Shown one piece after another: positions 11,283 to 37,881 of a stretch of DNA of 64,000 nt. The stretch spans positions 58,652,001 to 58,716,000 of the forward strand of contig CM068745.1 in the NCBI GenBank assembly GCA_035084275.1. Direction: 5' to 3'. Within the stretch, counting starts at the first letter, position 1; the number at the start of each line of letters is the position of its first letter. Source of the stretch: Hydrolagus colliei. Lineage: Eukaryota. Made by a program: the position numbers and the translations under genes. Under the pieces are notes generated by a model, which was not told where the DNA came from, did not search any database, and saw nothing but the letters and a program-made list of their open reading frames with translations.

Positions 11283-11581
11283 GAGCTGTGGCTCAGTGGT
11301 TAGAGCACTCACCTTACAGGTGAGAGACCTGAATTAAATTCCAGGCAGGGTGAAACCTTGGGCAGGTTCCCTACCAATAATCCCTCAAGGAAACATTAAT
11401 AAATTGGTCCTTTGAATCCATGACTGTTTGTGGGACGCTGCTGTGTGCAATCGGCTGTTGTGTTTCATCCACATATTTAATAATAATAAGTCAATTCACT
11501 TTACACTTTACAAGAGTTTTGAGACATCTAGAAAATGTGAAAAGCACTATATCCAATGCAAGGATTATTATTATCATTATA
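11283..11581 (+). mobile_element. Full-length tRNA-headed Deu-tail SINE
   Basis: GTGGCTCAGTGGTTAGAGCACTC head, TGTGGGACGCTGCTGTGTGCAATCGGCTG body, AAAAGCACTATATCCAATGCAAGGATTATTATT tail. A second tail fragment lies at ~11741-11854. Confidence 0.85.
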
Positions 11582-13186: not shown

Positions 13187-13418
13187 AACAAAAACAGAAA
13201 TCGCTGGGAACGCTTAGCACGTCAATCAGCATCCATGAAGGAAGGAAAGTGAGTCAATGTTTCGGGTCCACGACGCCAGTTCTGACGAAGGGTCGTGGAC
13301 CTGAAATGTTGACTTAGTTTCCCTTCTCCATTAGATGTTGCCTTACCTGCTGAGTGTTCCCAGTAATTTCTGTTTTTGTTTCAGATTTTCAGCATCTGCA
13401 GTATTTTGCATTTTTGTG
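13187..13418 (+). mobile_element. Penelope-like element 3' fragment with inverted pseudo-LTR
   Basis: 13187-13274 is an imperfect reverse complement of ~13293-13380; flanked by a 15-bp TSD TACACTATAA[T/C]GTAA (13172-13186, 13419-13433); contains CTGACGA-GGGTC/GACCT-GAAA. Confidence 0.75.
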
Positions 13419-18910: not shown

Positions 18911-20169
18911 GGAGGGCTAAGGTTCTCAGTGTTGGGGACAGGGAGGGAGTGCAGTGATGCTCAGTGTTGGGGTCACTGAGGGAGGGCAGTGATCCTCAAG
19001 TGTTCAGAACAGGGTGCAGTGTTGCTCAATGTTGGGGACAGTGTCGGAAGGCATTGGTGCTCAGTGTTGGAGGACAGAGAGGGCAGTGATCCTCCATGTT
19101 CAGAACAGGGAGCGCTGTGATGCTCATGTTAGGGATGGGTGTGAGGGCTCTATTCCTCAGTGTTGGAGGCAGGGAAGAAGGACCGTGATGCTCAGTTTTG
19201 GGGAGAAGATGAAGAGCAGTGATGCTCAGTGTTGACGGCATGGAAGGAGGGCAGTGATACCAAGTGATGGGGACAGGGAGGCAGGTAGCGAGGCTCAGTG
19301 TTGGGAGAGGGAGGTAGAGCAATTGTGCTCAGTGCTGGGGACAGGTAGGGAGAGCAGTGATGCTCAGTGTTGCCAATGTCGAGGAAGCGCACTGATGTTC
19401 AGTGTTGGGGATAGGGTGGGATGGCACTGTTGTTCAGTGTTGGGGACAGGGAGGGTGGGCATTAATGGTCAATGTTGTGGGCAGGGATGCTTAGTGTACT
19501 GTATAGGACAGTTGGTTGGGTAAGAGGACTGTGATATTCTAATACTCAGTGTTGGGGACAGTGGGTGGTGGAGGGGCAGTGATGCTCAGTGATGGCGACA
19601 TTGTGGGTGAGGGGGAAAGGAGTGGTGTTCAATGTTGGTTGACAGTGGGTAGGGGATAGTGATGCTCATTGATGGAGACAGTGGGTGGGGAGGGGGGGCA
19701 TTGGTGGGGGTGGGGACTGTGATGCCTAGTGTTGGATGGGGGCAGTGGGTGTGAGGGGGGGAGGGGGGGCAGTGATGCACAGTGTTGGGGGTAGTGGGTG
19801 GGGAGGGGGCCTATGATGTGCAGTGTTGGGGGGCAGTGTTGTCCAGTGTTGGGGATCTTGAGTGGGGACAGTGATGCCCAGTTTGGGGATCGTGTGTGGG
19901 GGAGCAGTGGGTGGGGTGAGATGGGGGGGGAGAGCAGTGTGTGGTTAGTGGGGGGCAGCCCACTACTGATAGGCCCATCACTGCCCATCACTAGTGGGCA
20001 GTGATGGACCACTGAGGTGGGGCTATGATGCTCAGTGTTGGGGTGGGGGGGGCATTATGTGTGTGTGGGGGGGTAGTGGGCGGGCAGTGGGTGTGGGATG
20101 GGGTAGGGGTGTGTGTGGGGGAGTAGTGGGGGCAGTGGGTGAGGTGGGGCTGTGATAGTGTAAGGGGTC

Positions 20170-23100
20170 AATGTGTTTGGGGGGGTCAGTGTGTGTGTGT
20201 GGGGGGGGGGTCAGTGTGTGTGTGTGTGGGGGGGTCAGTGTGTGTGTGGGGGGGGTCATTGTGTGTGGGGGAGGTTAGTGTCAGTGTGTTTGTGTGGGGG
20301 GGTAGTGTCTGTGTGGCAGGGGCTCAGTGTGTGTGTGGGGGGGGTGGTCAATGTGTGTGTGGGGGGGTAGTGTCTGTGTGGGGAGGGGGTCAGTGTGTGT
20401 GGGGGGGATCAGTGTGTGTGGGGGGGGTTAGTGTCAGTGTGGGGGGGGGGTCAGTGTGTGGGGGGGGAGGGGGGTCAGTGTGTGTGGGTGGGGAGGGGGG
20501 TCAGTGTGTGGCGGGGTGTAGTGTCTGTGTGGGGGAGGGGGTCAGTGTGTGTGGGGAGGGGGGCCAGTGTGTGTGGGGGGGGGGTAGTGTCTGTGTGGGG
20601 GGGGGGTCAGTGTGTGGGGGGGGAGGGGGGTCAGTGTGTGTGGGTGGGGTCAGTGTGTGTGGGGGGGGGGGTCAGTGTGTGTGGGGTGGGGGGTAGTGTG
20701 TGGGGGGGGGGTTGTCAGTGTGTGTGTGGGGGGGGTAGTGTCTGTGTGTGTGGGGGGGGTAGTGTCTGTGTGGGGGAGGGGGGTGTCTGTGTGGGGGAGG
20801 GGGTTCAGTGTGTGTGGGGGGGGGGGGTAATGTCTGTGTGGGGGAGGGGGTTCAGTGTGTGGGGGGGGGAGGGGGGTCAGTGTGTGTGGGTGGGGGGGGG
20901 GTCAGTGTGTGGGGGGGGGGGGGGGGTCAGTTGTGTGTGTGTGTGTGGGGGGGTAATGTCTGTGTGGGGGAGGGGGTTCAGTGTGTGGGGGGGAGGGGGG
21001 TCAGTGTGTGGGGGGGGGGTCAGTGTGCGGGGGGGGGAGGGGGTCAGTGTGTGTGGGGGGGGGGTCAGTGTGTGTGGGGGGGGAGGGGGGTCAGTGTGCG
21101 TGGGGGGGGGGGGTCAGTGTGTGTGGGGGGGGGGGTCAGTGTGCGGGGGTGGGAGGGGGGGTCAGTGTGTGTGGGGGTCAATGTGTGTGGGGGGGGGGTC
21201 AGTGTGTGTGTGGGGGGGGGGTCAATGTGTGTGTGTGGGGGGGTCAGTGTGTGTGGGGGGGGGTCAGTGTGTGTGGGGGGGGTGGGGTCAGTGTGTGGGG
21301 GGGGGGGGGTCAGTGTGTGTGGGGTGGGGGATAGTGTGTGTGGGGGGGGGTGTCAGTGTGTGTGTGGGGGGGGTAGTGTCTGTGTGTGGGGGGGGGGTAG
21401 TGTCTGTGTGGGGGAGGGGGGTGTCTGTGTGGGGGAGGGGGTTCAGTGTGTGGGGGGGGGTGGGGTCAGTTGTGTGTGTGGGGGGGGGGGTAATGTCTGT
21501 GTGGGGGAGGGGGTTCAGTGAGTGGGGGGGAGGGGGGTCAGTGTGTGTGGGTGGGGGGGGGGTCAGTGTGTGGGGGGGGGGGGTCAGTTGTGTGTGTGTG
21601 TGTGTGGGGGGGGTAATGTCTGTGTGGGGGAGGGGGTTCAGTGTGTGGGGGGGAGGGGGGTCAGTGTGTGTGGGGGGGGGGTCAGTGTGCGGGGGTGGGA
21701 GGGGGGGGTCAGTGTGTGTGGGGGGGGGGGCAGTGTGTGTGGGGGAGGGAGGTCAGTGTGCGGGGGTGGGAGGGGGGGTCAGTGTGTGTGTGGGGGGGGG
21801 TCAGTGTGTGTGGGGGAGGGGGGGTCAGTGTGTGTGTGGGGGGGGTCAGTGTGTGTGTGGGGGGGGGTCAGTGTGTGTGGGGGAGGGGGGTCAGTGTGTG
21901 TGTGGGGGGGGTCAGTGTGTGTGGGGGGGAGGTCAGTGTGTGTGTGGGGGGGGGTCAGTGTGTGTGGGGGAGGGGGGTCAGTGTGTGTGGGGGGGGGGTC
22001 AGTGTGTGTGGGGGGGGGGTCAGTGTGTGTGTGTGGGGGGGTCAGTGTGTGTGTGGGAGGGGGGTCAGTGTGTGTGGGGGGGGGTCAGTGTGTGTGGGGG
22101 AGGGGGGTCAGTGTGTGTGGGGGGGGGGTAGTGTCTGTGTGGGGGGGGGTCAGTGTGGGGGGGGGGGGGTCAGTGTGTGTGTGGGGGGGGGTCAGTGTGT
22201 GTGGGGGAGGGGGGTCAGTGTGTGTGGGGGAGGGGGGTCAGTGTGTGTGGGGGGGGGGTCAGTGTGTGTGGGGGAGGGGTCAGTGTGTGTGGGGGAGGGG
22301 GGTCAGTGTGTGTGGGGGGGGGTCAGTGTGTGTGGGGGGGGGGGTCAGTGTGTGTGGGGGGGGGGTCAGTGTGTGTGGGGGGGGGGTCAGTGTGTGTGGG
22401 GGAGGGGGGTCAGTGTGTGTGGGGGGGGGTCAGTGTGTGTGGGGGAGGGGGGTCAGTGTGTGTGGGGGGGGGTCAGTGTGTGTGGGGGAGGGGGGTCAGT
22501 GTGTGGGGGGGAGGGGGGTCAGTGGGTGGGGGGGAGGGGGGTCAGTGTGTGTGGGGGAGGGGGGTCAGTGTGTGTGGGGGGGGGGTCAGTGTGTGTGGGG
22601 GAGGGGGGTCAGTGTGTGTGGGGGGGGGTCAGTGTGTGTGGGGGGGGGGTCAGTGTGTGTGGGGGGGGGTAGTGTCTGTGTGGGGGGGGGGTCAGTGTGT
22701 GTGGGGGAGGGGGGTCAGTGTGTGTGGGGGGGGGTCAGTGTGTGTGGGGGAGGGGGGTCAGTGTGTGGGGGGGAGGGGGGTCAGTGGGTGGGGGGGAGGG
22801 GGGTCAGTGTGTGTGGGGGAGGGGGGTCAGTGTGTGTGGGGGGGGGGGGTCAGTGTGTGTGGGGGAGGGGGGTCAGTGTGTGTGGGGGGGGGTCAGTGTG
22901 TGTGGGGGGGGGGTCAGTGTGTGTGGGGGGGGGTAGTGTCTGTGTGGGGGGGGGTCAGTGTGTGTGGGGGGGGGGTCAGTGTGTGTGGGGGAGGGTGGTC
23001 AGTGTGTGTGTGGGGGGGGGTCAGTGTGTGTGGGGGAGGGGGGTCAGTGTGTGTGGGGGGGGTCAGTGTGTGTGGGGGAGGGGGGGTCAGTGTGTGTGGG

Positions 23101-23757
23101 GGGGGTCAGTGTGTGTGGGGGAGGGGGGTCAGTGTGTGTGGGGGGGGGGTAGTGTCTGTGTGGGGGGGGGTCAGTGTGTGTGTGGGGGGGGTCAGTGTGT
23201 GTGGGGGGGGGGTAGTGTCTGTGTGGGGGGGGGGTCAGTGTGTGTGGGGGGGGGGGTCAGTGTGTGTGGGGGGGGGGTCAGTGTGTGTGGGGGGGGGGGG
23301 TCAGTGTGTGGGGGGGGGTCAGTGTGTGTGGGGGGAGGGGGGTCAGTGTGTGTGGGGGTGGGGGTCAGTGTGTGTGGGGGGGGGGTCAGTGTGTGGGGGG
23401 GAGGGTCAGTGTGTGTGGGGGGGGGGGGTCAGTGTGTGTGGGGGGGGGTCAGTGTGTGTGGGGGGGGGTCAGTGTGTGTGGGGGGGGGGATCAGTGTGTG
23501 TGGGGGGGGGTCAGTGTGTGTGGGGGGGGGTCAGTGTGTGGGGGGGGGGTCAGTGTGTGGGGGGAGGGTCAGTGTGTGGGGGGGAGGGGGGGTCAGTGTG
23601 TGGGGGGGGGGTCAGTGTGTGGGGGGGGTCAGTGTGTGTGGGGGGGGGTCAGTGTGTGGGGGGGGGGGGGTCAGTGTGTGTGGGGGGGGGGTCGGTGTGT
23701 GTGGGGGGGGGTCAGTGTGTGGGGGGGGGGTCTGTGTGTGGGGGGGGGGATCAGTGG
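20170..23757 (+). repeat. G-rich simple satellite, unit approximately TCAGTGTGTGT(G)7-12
   Basis: Directly visible ~3.6-kb tandem array with variants TAGTGTCTGTGT and GGGGGAGGGGGG. Confidence 0.97.
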
Positions 23758-24032
23758 TTGAGGGTGGATTGGTGTGGAGGCGGCGCGGTGCAGTGTGGGA
23801 GGCGCTGTGAGCTGAGCCGCCATTTTGTTGCTGAGCGGAGTCGCGCCGTTTCGGTTGTTTTGTCTCTTCCTCTCTCTGTGTTGAAAGTGGTGATCATTTC
23901 CAAAAGGCCCGTGAGTGTGTTATAACTACTGTTATTGTACACACCCCGTATAATAAGACAGATCTGCTCAGGAGGAAGGCCTCTGAGTGAGAGGGAGAGA
24001 GTGTGTGAGGCGGCGGCGCCTGGGCCCGGACC
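23758..24032 (+). promoter_or_regulatory. ARGLU1: ARGLU1 core promoter / 5' UTR
   Basis: Inverted CCAAT (ATTGG 23768-23772) and YY1-type motif GCCGCCATTTT (23816-23826), CpG-rich, just upstream of the start codon in good Kozak context (ACCATGG). TSS not determinable. Confidence 0.6.
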
Positions 24033-34639: not shown

Positions 34640-34865
34640 CCGGCAGCAGGAAATAGAAGAAAAGCTTATTGAAGAAGAGACTGCAAGGAGAGTGGAAGAA
34701 CTTGTGGCGAAACGTGTAGAAGAAGAACTTGAGAAACGGAAAGATGAGATTGAGCGTGAGGTGCTCAGGCGAGTCGAAGAGGCTAAGCGCATTATGGAAA
34801 AGCAGCTGTTGGAGGAGCTTGAGCGACAGCGACACGCTGAGCTTGCTGCACAGAAAGCCAGAGAG
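34640..34865 (+). CDS. ARGLU1: ARGLU1 coding exon 2 (226 nt)
   Basis: Acceptor TTTTAG|C completes the Ile codon; [75 protein letters not shown]; donor GAG|GTAACG at 34866. Confidence 0.97.
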
Positions 34866-37299
34866 GTAACGCTCAATCGTTGGAAAAGCAAACGACAGTC
34901 CATGGCAAAACTTTCAGTCATAATCAATGGTCACCACTTAATCATCATCGTTAGATGGAATCGGAATGATCTCTTCCCTTTTCCAGCAGCCTGCAATATA
35001 ACAATATGTTCTTCTTTTAAAAGTTGCATTTCTTTTGATGTACACATAATCTACACTTTAAACATCATAATAGTATAAGATGCTGAATGTACTATTTCAT
35101 TAGACTACATCAAGCATTGTTCTGTGACGTTTGCTGTTTAAATTTAAAGAATTTGGGGGCAAATAGTACTAATAATGCACCAGACTATCAGTACATGTTG
35201 AAAATCTCTTTCCACACTTTAGTTCAATTGAAACTTTTGCCATGGCTGCAGACTTTTAATTACTTAACCGTGCAAAAATCTTTTTTTACGGCTGTTTGAT
35301 CTAACAATTTGCCCTTCATTTGTATAATCACGCTGTATTCCATCCTGTCTCAAGTGACTTTGTCTTCCTTTCGCTGAAGCAGGGCAAAGTATCTGCGCTG
35401 AAATGCCTGCTTTGGGCAAGTGGTCTTTTTTTAATGTCCAGTCTAAATTAGATTAAGACGGGGTAACTTGATCATTAGGAATCTGACATCAGCCTCCATT
35501 TTATTCAAAGGAGCCTTGTGGGACTGGAACCAGTCCGTTGTAATCTACCACCAGCGTTTAGTTATAAGTACCTTTTCCTCCCAAGAGAATTATTGATGAT
35601 TGGTGAGTCCAGACTGAATGTGAAGCTAGATGTCCTGTATTTTTTAAGCTTGTTGAACAAGAAGCTGAAAAATGTCTTCCTGTGAAATAGTGATTTGCTA
35701 CTATATTGAGTTTTGCTGACACTCATCACCTCTGGTTTCTGAAATGAAATACTCAAAAGTCTTGCAGTGCAGTGTTTAGCCATCCATAACAACTTCCCCA
35801 AATCTAACATTAACCCTTTGACCATTGAATTTCCTAGTAGTTTCCCAATCTACACTTTTTTGTCACTTTTTTTTATAAATGCGGTTGTACATTTCTAATG
35901 CTGGACATCATTTTATAGAATTAGAAAAATGTGAAGAGACCAAATATTGCTTCATTTGCAATATTCCAAGAAGAAAATTAAATGTGAGTTTTTATTTTCA
36001 GCACAATCATTTTGCAAAGACTTCAAAGGGTTAGTGATTAGTTCATATTTTTATTGCTGTTAATATCATACCAGCTATAATTTTACAAGTAACATCACCT
36101 GCATTTTTGGCTACATTGACCTAAAATCTATTTTGCAAGTTTCATAACTATAAGGTTCCCAAAATTAACGTGCAATTACACGTTCGTCTGCAGAAGTTAA
36201 GCGAAGGAACATTAATGGTGTTTAGTTTGTCTGTTGGAATCAAAGACTTATTTTCATTTCAGAATGCTATATCTATTGTCTTAAAGGGAGAACCCACTTT
36301 TTCCTCTTTACATTTAATGTAGACACTAGCATCATAGAGTTTTAGGAAATTAATGAAAAGTTGATGTATGTGCTATTTTTCTAAAACTGAAGCGCCTTTA
36401 GAGTGACTACATTATTCTACTGTATTATACATTGTATTGCAGTCAGTGCTTTTTTATGTGCTTTAATTTAGTTTTGTTTTCACACACTTATCTAAGCCAG
36501 ACTTGTAAAGTATTCAGAGTGTATTGATTATAACATACTGTAAAATAATGACTATTGTATTATGATTTGCACTCTTACTTGCTTGTATTCAGATTATTTA
36601 AAATTCCAGGGTTGATGTGTGTCAGCTTGTAGCATGTTACTGATCAGAGTAAGATTTTTTTCTCTTTAATGTATCTACCAATAGCTTTGCTTGGCTTCAT
36701 GTTAACATTGTCATCCAACAGACAAGGAGTATATTTTCAGGTCCGTTCACAGTACTGAAAACTTCATTTTTCCGTTCTGGGCACGTTGCAGATTGTTTAA
36801 TTTCAAGTACTGGAGAGGCATTCTATTTCCATTCGGGTTCTGGTTTATAAAATGGGATGGTCTGTGGACAGATTGGAATTCAGAGTTGTGACACTAAATT
36901 TGTCACTGTATCTAGAGACATGACACAAGCTCAATATAAAGTAGACAATATGGTTTTAGGAAGTCAGTCTAGTTTATTCAGTGAATGAATGCCTGTTGGA
37001 CTTGTAGAACAGCAAATAATTCCTCAGGAAAGTTATTGGGTAATTAGCAGCTTTTAATGACGTCTCCATGTTGTACCATGGTTTGGCGCCCTCACCAATT
37101 AGTCTAGTGACTGCAGACTCTGATATGATGAAGGTACGTGTTCTCAGAACGGAACAAATCATCATTTCTTCCTACTGTGAAAGAGGTCCTCAGTTCCACA
37201 AAAGGATCAATTGAAGTTTGTATTTTTCACTAACAGTAAATGTATCTTTCTTATTAATTGTTTGCCTTAGGAATGGTGATTTATATTGTTTCTTCTTAC

Positions 37300-37545
37300 C
37301 GTAAACATCTGCATTCCTCAGCTCAGCCTGCGTTGTGTTGTGTTTCTTGTTATTGGCTGAGCTGCTGATGCAGGTGTTGCCAAGCTAACAGTACAAATCA
37401 GTTTAAAGAGGAAGCTGGCGCATATGGCAGCCGAGGAGCACACTCTGCAGGACACTGGACGAGACAGTAAATATTCAACTTTTAATGCTGATTAATGGAG
37501 TTATAGGTAAAGAATACGTAGGTATTTGTAATTGGTGAGAAAAAT
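37300..37545 (+). promoter_or_regulatory. ARGLU1: Putative ARGLU1 intron-2 conserved splicing-control element with poison/decoy exon
   Basis: Candidate acceptors before 37411 and 37451, branch-like CTAAC at 37385-37389, GT donors at 37507/37518/37522/37528/37535; both exon starts give in-frame TAA. The position matches the known mammalian ARGLU1 intron-2 ultraconserved element. Confidence 0.75.
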
Positions 37546-37881
37546 CTATTCATTTTATTTTATTTTTTTATTAATGTAATGGATAATGTTTCTGTAGCTG
37601 TTGTTGTATTATGTGTGCTTTAAAACAATTCAGTAATAACTATCAGCAAACCTGACTAAAGAGGGTTTGGATCATTGCTGTTTGAGGGCTGGGAGGGGTG
37701 AATTAAACCCAGAAAGAGTTTAAGTAGGGGCAAAATAGTTCACATGAATGATTGGCAATAAAAGGTGGCTGTCTTGGGCATAGTCAGAGCAAGAAAAATA
37801 TACTAAAGGGAAGAAACAGCTAGTCTAGATACAATTTTAAAGTAGCTTCTTTCTTTTAACATTTCATTGTCTCCTACTTAG

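Follow-up and report, generated by a model that had tools for sequence, protein, structure and literature searches.

The known ultraconserved element in intron 2 of ARGLU1 has at its 5′ end a 75-base inverted repeat (37304-37378, 21 bp) that is predicted to fold as one stable hairpin. Positions are those of the window, the whole 64,000-nt stretch of Hydrolagus colliei DNA that was analysed; ARGLU1 is encoded on its + strand and the hairpin sits between exons 2 and 3. It is a real, deeply conserved hairpin within a known regulatory element, its function is putative, and some published evidence argues against a strong effect. The reading that we tentatively prefer is that these conserved bases form a fixed element that fine-tunes a weak acceptor, and not a switch.

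The hairpin and its setting in ARGLU1 intron 2

Conservation was assessed by comparing the window with one homologue, L002, the single locus provided by a metagenome scan. The features of the region, all on the + strand, are as follows.

34640..34865, + strand: ARGLU1 exon 2 (PF15346 match, E 2.4e-19; phase 0 end at donor gag/GTAACG)
37285..37299, + strand: pyrimidine-rich tract close to the hairpin, on its 5′ side (start positions of the best T-rich 12-mers, 37285-37289)
37304..37328, + strand: 5′ arm (outer strand 37304-14, internal loop 37315-18, inner strand 37319-28; CAG at 37319 and 37324; 0/25 differences from L002)
37329..37354, + strand: U-rich terminal loop, 26 nt (27 nt in L002 and human; 9/27 columns differ)
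37355..37378, + strand: 3′ arm (GAG at 37359, CAG at 37371; 2/24 differences from L002)
37385..37389, + strand: branch-point-like CTAAC (candidate branch A at 37388; identical in L002)
37407..37408, + strand: acceptor AG of the 58-nt decoy exon (AAG, without a pyrimidine tract; counted back from the donor)
37409..37466, + strand: predicted 58-nt decoy or poison exon (2/58 differences from L002)
37467..37540, + strand: weak donor aca/GTAAAT and competing donor cluster (human SS1-SS6), by match to Table 1 of PMC5389617
37882..37965, + strand: ARGLU1 exon 3 (PF15346 profile positions 72-98, E 2.4e-05)

The outer helix pairs 37304-37314 with 37368-37378 (11 bp, one G-U) and the inner helix pairs 37319-37328 with 37355-37364 (10 Watson-Crick pairs). 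All of the pairings proposed in the initial annotation of this DNA are therefore present, as are its 26-nt terminal loop and its 4x3 internal loop, to which ViennaRNA adds one U-G pair, reducing it to 3x2. The annotation had also described three CAGs (37319, 37324 and 37371) as buried in the stem; these have a predicted unpaired probability of 0.00 each, as does the GAG at 37359, which is buried too. Composed of 16 T, 7 G, 2 C and 1 A, the terminal loop has a mean unpaired probability of 0.88 here and 0.64 in L002, and is one of the two most U-rich tracts in the region, lying upstream of the branch-like motif. The CTAAC motif starts 6 nt beyond the end of the stem, where it had been annotated, and presumably serves as the branch site; its candidate branch A lies 20 nt before the acceptor G, and only 7 of the 16 bases between this A and the acceptor are pyrimidines.

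With PF15346 matches on both flanking exons, the poison exon suspected from the sequence is the ARGLU1 decoy exon. Intron 2 is 3016 nt long, and its exon 2 donor gag/GTAACG is the human 9-mer listed in Table 1 of PMC5389617. Sequence features that define the ARGLU1 decoy element were found: inclusion of the predicted 58-nt exon would shift the frame so that translation stops in exon 3 at 67 nt upstream of the last junction (more than 50-55 nt), the acceptor is weak and there are several donors. Decoy function and a weak acceptor have been shown in human by Parra et al. 2018 and Pirnie et al. 2017 (PMC6097662, PMC5389617), and a better pyrimidine tract at the human acceptor leads to strong exon inclusion (PMC5389617). 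The human exon is given as 58 nt in PMC6097662 and as 57 nt, after a 1-nt deletion, in the legend to Fig. S8 of PMC5389617. Since the human exon is 58 nt and ends at aca/GTAAAT, the acceptor is placed here at 37407-37408, two bases earlier than the AG at 37410 first put forward; the latter was rejected, as the exon would then measure 56 nt and the stop would fall only 20 nt upstream of the last junction, which does not match the human exon. The accompanying remark that the acceptor is without a polypyrimidine tract proved correct, its pyrimidine fraction being 0.50 against 0.81 at the acceptors of exons 2 and 3.

The four AGs buried in the stem (37321, 37326, 37361 and 37373) have pyrimidine fractions of 0.62, 0.69, 0.69 and 0.50, so that three of the four have a better pyrimidine context than the decoy acceptor. 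Human decoy exon sizes range from 58 to 200 nt (PMC6097662). When 54 acceptor-donor pairs were counted on L002, starting at the 5′ arm, the 200-nt size was obtained only from the first 5′-arm CAG combined with donor SS5, which is one hint, from sequence, that a buried AG may be used; the 200-nt human exon could alternatively arise from an upstream AG at 37269-37270 (201 nt counted on Fig. S4). That AG, also seen by eye in L002 and in the human sequence of Fig. S4 (PMC5389617), is a candidate upstream acceptor, preceded by a branch-like motif and a pyrimidine-rich tract. Its use would give an exon of 196 nt here and of about 201 nt in human, the hairpin then being exonic; each of the three sequences would meet an in-frame stop within the first three codons. 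Deletion 168-1 of Pirnie et al. removes this AG, and no change in retention is reported for it (PMC5389617).

Folding stability and chance controls

The exact 75 nt fold with -34.0 kcal/mol and a z of -5.25, a score that is to be read with the fact that the boundaries were chosen afterwards, and none of 200 shuffles was as stable. No dinucleotide shuffle of the 256-nt core (0/311) gave an 80-nt window as stable as the hairpin, and the L002 hairpin, at -28.5 kcal/mol, was matched by 7 of 298 core shuffles. The arm-to-arm duplex, set against shuffled arms, was matched by 0 and 2/1000. Pair probabilities in the inner helix were 0.99-1.00 in all five sequence contexts used here (up to 620 nt) and in all four used for L002. 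The minus strand also folds (-30.6 kcal/mol), and the substitutions leave the strand unsettled, one wobble and one mismatch being gained on each.

A scan of 6268 windows on the + strand, with N-containing windows and 15 just 5′ of the hairpin left out, showed that the hairpin is strong but not unique in the 64 kb: 6 of 1246 80-nt windows of similar GC, at three places, have an equal or better folding energy. At 13241-13320, outside ARGLU1, lies the most stable 80-nt hairpin of the window (-45.7 kcal/mol), possibly a repeat-derived inverted repeat. Two further features of the window are a partial tRNA match at 11289-11344 (31.5 bits, model positions 8-63 of 71), probably a tRNA-derived repeat, and a GC-rich, strongly G/T-skewed stretch at 20001-24000 (GC skew 0.81-0.85), directly upstream of ARGLU1 exon 1 and likely a simple tandem repeat.

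In the 1.0-Gb assembly the hairpin region was single-copy at the sensitivity of the search. A second site containing both 10-nt inner arms with a 16-nt spacer was observed (L010, G000:C3:90121654-90121689); it was rejected as a second copy of the hairpin, as only short words are shared and there is no ARGLU1 exon-2 match.

Conservation

By eye, L002 is identical to the human sequence of Fig. S4 in PMC5389617 over 228 nt, the hairpin and its loop included; this stretch begins 4 nt ahead of the stem and runs to 60 nt past the donor. Since 228 nt is the length that Pirnie et al. give for the human-chicken identity block (PMC5389617), L002 is probably from a bird. The first third of this strict element consists of the hairpin, loop included. 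Searches for further vertebrate homologues returned none from genome contigs, and none from viral contigs for the exon pattern; seven viral-contig loci that matched the arm pattern were rejected, none having the exon core or the branch region.

L002 keeps 20 of the 21 pairs, and over both sequences 41/42 cells are paired. Between the window and L002 the stem differs at 2/42 bases and the loop at 9/27 columns (Fisher p = 0.002), which, for this one homologue, is the pattern of conserved arms and a more variable loop that had been anticipated. The internal-loop bases are unchanged (0/7), and differences are found at 3/18 columns of 37286-37303, upstream of the stem, and at 5/74 columns of the donor cluster. 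The loop is the most divergent part of 37304-37540 (9/27 versus 8/162 in the downstream core, p = 8e-5); U-rich sequence diverges elsewhere too (49/116 columns at 37541-37640), and the loop is not freely variable, human and L002 being the same by eye. The description of the loop as GU- or U-rich was borne out for U, with 16 T in both sequences, and failed for GU: there are 7 G here and 3 G in L002, and TGTGT occurs twice here and 0 times in L002.

The stem is no better conserved than its neighbours (2/42 versus 8/162 in the downstream core, p = 1.0). One of its two changes, at 37357, keeps the pair as G-U and the other, at 37376, breaks a C-G pair in L002; one kept and one broken pair is the outcome expected of random transitions. 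Compensatory changes number 0 in 21 pairs, a count that, with two distinct sequences and two stem changes, has no power for covariation. As read from these sequences, the conservation pattern fits a conserved hairpin, and sequence constraint alone could also explain the conservation of the stem.

Published human deletions covering the hairpin

Three published deletions already dissect the hairpin as arm, loop and arm. According to the primers in Table S1 of PMC5389617, the 25-nt deletion 2 is exactly the 5′ arm, deletion 3 takes 25/27 loop bases and deletion 4 takes the 3′ arm minus its last base. In the text of Pirnie et al., effects are attributed to deletions 6-8 (exon), 9-11 and 13, and 1-5 go unmentioned (PMC5389617); these outcomes are taken from the text of the paper rather than from the gel and apply to one cell line. 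As far as that text goes, deletions 2-4 argue softly against a large basal role of the hairpin in HEK-293T cells, and they weaken the original proposal that it controls exon inclusion versus intron retention. This silence is soft evidence because deletion 5, which removes CTAAC, is equally unmentioned and because ARGLU1 feedback was tested, in the account given in PMC5389617, solely with the whole 504-nt deletion. Removal of an arm is predicted to expose the buried AGs (unpaired 0.3-0.8). In the transplant made by Parra et al., 103-104 nt of upstream flank accompanied the decoy (PMC6097662), a length that takes in the whole hairpin except its first 2-3 nt; because this flank includes nearly all of the hairpin, the transplant does not address whether the hairpin is necessary.

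A proposed fixed element tuning a weak acceptor

What the analysis establishes is the sequence, its capacity to pair, its positions and how it is conserved; that the hairpin folds in cells, masks AGs and has any effect on splicing is an inference. When folded it would bury the four AGs at 37321, 37326, 37361 and 37373, and its loop would hold a U-rich tract upstream of the branch-like motif, where it would be unusable as the tract of the decoy acceptor. What remained for the spliceosome would be a branch site and a tract-less AAG that is recognised and poorly spliced. Because such an AAG splices poorly, the intron would mostly be detained and the 58-nt poison exon only sometimes included.

Stability beyond that of shuffles in both species (0/311; 7/298), with 41/42 cells paired, is consistent with a fixed fine-tuner, as are the pyrimidine fractions of the buried AGs when compared with the 0.50 of the decoy acceptor, the start of the human 228-nt identity block 4 nt before the stem, and the strong inclusion that a better human acceptor tract causes (PMC5389617). 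Against it stand the 0/21 compensatory changes, stem changes of the kind that random transitions would give, and a stem that is only as conserved as the rest of the element; in addition, the human arm or loop deletions go unmentioned in the text of PMC5389617, despite the AG exposure predicted for them.

Alternative explanations

The silence on deletions 2-4 would be consistent with a somewhat unlikely but credible alternative, that the hairpin was selected as a protein-binding platform whose main effect lies outside basal acceptor choice. The loop would display its sequence to binders of the U2AF2, PUF60, TIA1, ELAVL or hnRNP C type, and the consequence would be felt in ARGLU1 feedback or in the detention or stability of the intron-retained RNA; the use of the whole 504-nt deletion as the only reported test of feedback (PMC5389617) leaves room for such a role. 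The loop is predicted to be open, has 16 T in both lineages and is identical in human and L002. A passage of PMC6097662 places U2AF1/2 crosslinks, in approximate terms, near the acceptor of the ARGLU1 decoy, and ARGLU1 co-precipitates with PUF60 and U2AF2 (PMC6451108). However, no binding data mapped to the loop were found, neither species has the ARGLU1 RNAcompete motif within 37285-37560, and the GU repeats are not conserved.

It is unlikely that the complementarity is incidental, the arms being kept as linear protein-binding or splice-site motifs and their pairing being unselected. Such an origin would account for the lack of covariation, for the one pair broken in amniotes and for a stem conservation rate equal to that of the unpaired parts of the element, and, at similar GC, the window has two other places of equal folding stability. 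It is harder to reconcile with the small number of core shuffles (0/311 and 7/298) that reach the stability of the hairpin, and with the fact that divergence falls at both loop borders and the block of strict identity starts at the base of the stem.

The initial annotation had favoured a structural switch, and a regulated two-state element that shifts retention to poison-exon inclusion now appears quite unlikely. By one route a protein or helicase would open the stem, yielding a complete acceptor made of branch-like CTCA motifs in the 5′ arm, the U-tract of the loop and an AG of the 3′ arm, and these elements do occur in canonical order inside the hairpin; by another, the 5′ arm would be freed to pair with the exon, and a fold with this pairing is present in both species. 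Four buried or nearby AGs would, if used, give stops inside the exon, two YGCY motifs flank the 3′ arm (37363, 37378), and cTNT exon 5 offers a precedent (PMC7404189). However, when the arms are kept from pairing with each other the fold becomes less stable by 5.8 kcal/mol here and by 4.6 kcal/mol in L002, and the rival fold does no better than shuffles: its helix between 5′ arm and exon is equalled by 288 and 272/1000 shuffled exons, and 18/60 downstream shuffles give as small an energy gap. That fold is, moreover, common to both species only because the sequences are identical there, and the arm deletions are without an effect reported in the text of PMC5389617. Modelling thus gives no sign of a designed second state, and a protein may yet open the stem. 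An extra helix between the upstream pyrimidine tract and the acceptor (141-nt fold) was rejected as context-dependent and unproven, with 9.0 expected pairs in short contexts and, in long contexts, 0-0.6 here and 0-3.2 in L002.

An ADAR substrate or small-RNA precursor is very improbable: position 37376 carries a genomic G here, as is sometimes the case at edited sites, and an A opposite C in L002 and human, but it lies only two pairs from the helix end, the 21-bp stem falls short of the stem sizes needed by ADAR and Drosha (a pre-miRNA stem has ∼35 bp), and no Rfam family is reached at the gathering threshold, the best E over 37280-37700 being 7.6. No report of A-to-I editing of ARGLU1 at the hairpin was found in literature titles, and the mouse Arglu1 miRNA candidate described in PMC3597668 is a different, GC-rich hairpin in the coding region. 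Rfam-family, miRNA and K-turn readings were likewise rejected. So was an H/ACA snoRNA, for which the box is expected 14-16 nt from the internal loop; ANANNA at 37388 and 37395 lies at least 24 nt from it.

Relation to known systems

The ARGLU1 intron 2 element of Pirnie et al. and Parra et al. (PMC5389617, PMC6097662) shares with the present locus the gene, the intron, the 58-nt exon, the weak acceptor and the donor cluster, and the model proposed there builds on splice sites that are weak and in competition. In the main text of PMC5389617 the words 'hairpin' and 'branch' are absent, and 'structure' and 'stem' occur only in references; the passages available from PMC6097662 mention no RNA structure. 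No description of the hairpin was found in the titles and opening abstract lines examined for ARGLU1. The hairpin is apparently undescribed, and its prior prediction in genome-wide structure catalogues, which give their hits as coordinates, is quite possible.

In cTNT (TNNT2) intron 4, as here, a stem-loop lies beside the 3′ splice site of an alternative exon, where it may govern whether U2AF65 gains access (PMC7404189). Two mutually exclusive structures were shown in cTNT, MBNL1 versus U2AF65 (Warf et al. 2009, via PMC7404189). The ARGLU1 hairpin is unlike cTNT in that no designed second state was found and in that its tract lies upstream of the branch motif; the pyrimidine tract of cTNT reportedly sits in the loop. 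Conserved pairing beside poison exons of self-regulating RNA-processing genes is also known from hairpins of BRD2/BRD3 and of helicase genes. Hairpins of the BRD2/BRD3 type mask a splice signal that is used, whereas the main acceptor and the branch motif of ARGLU1 lie outside the stem, and ARGLU1, unlike the hosts of the helicase-gene hairpins, is not a helicase.

Significance

The decoy exon of ARGLU1 serves as a model for intron detention, and the ultraconservation of its flanks lacks an explanation. With the hairpin, a concrete shape can be put to the first 76 of the 228 invariant bases; should its role be limited to fine-tuning, the addition to a well-studied locus would be modest. More speculatively, and improbably on present evidence, the hairpin might be a sensor of ARGLU1 autoregulation, the arginine-rich N-terminus of the protein binding the stem and internal loop while PUF60/U2AF2 hold the terminal loop. 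ARGLU1 has, to our knowledge, no RNA-binding domain, and viral arginine-rich motifs bind structured RNA. Should the hairpin be such a sensor, the level of ARGLU1 would set the engagement of the decoy acceptor, and the first third of the ultraconserved element would have a structural explanation.
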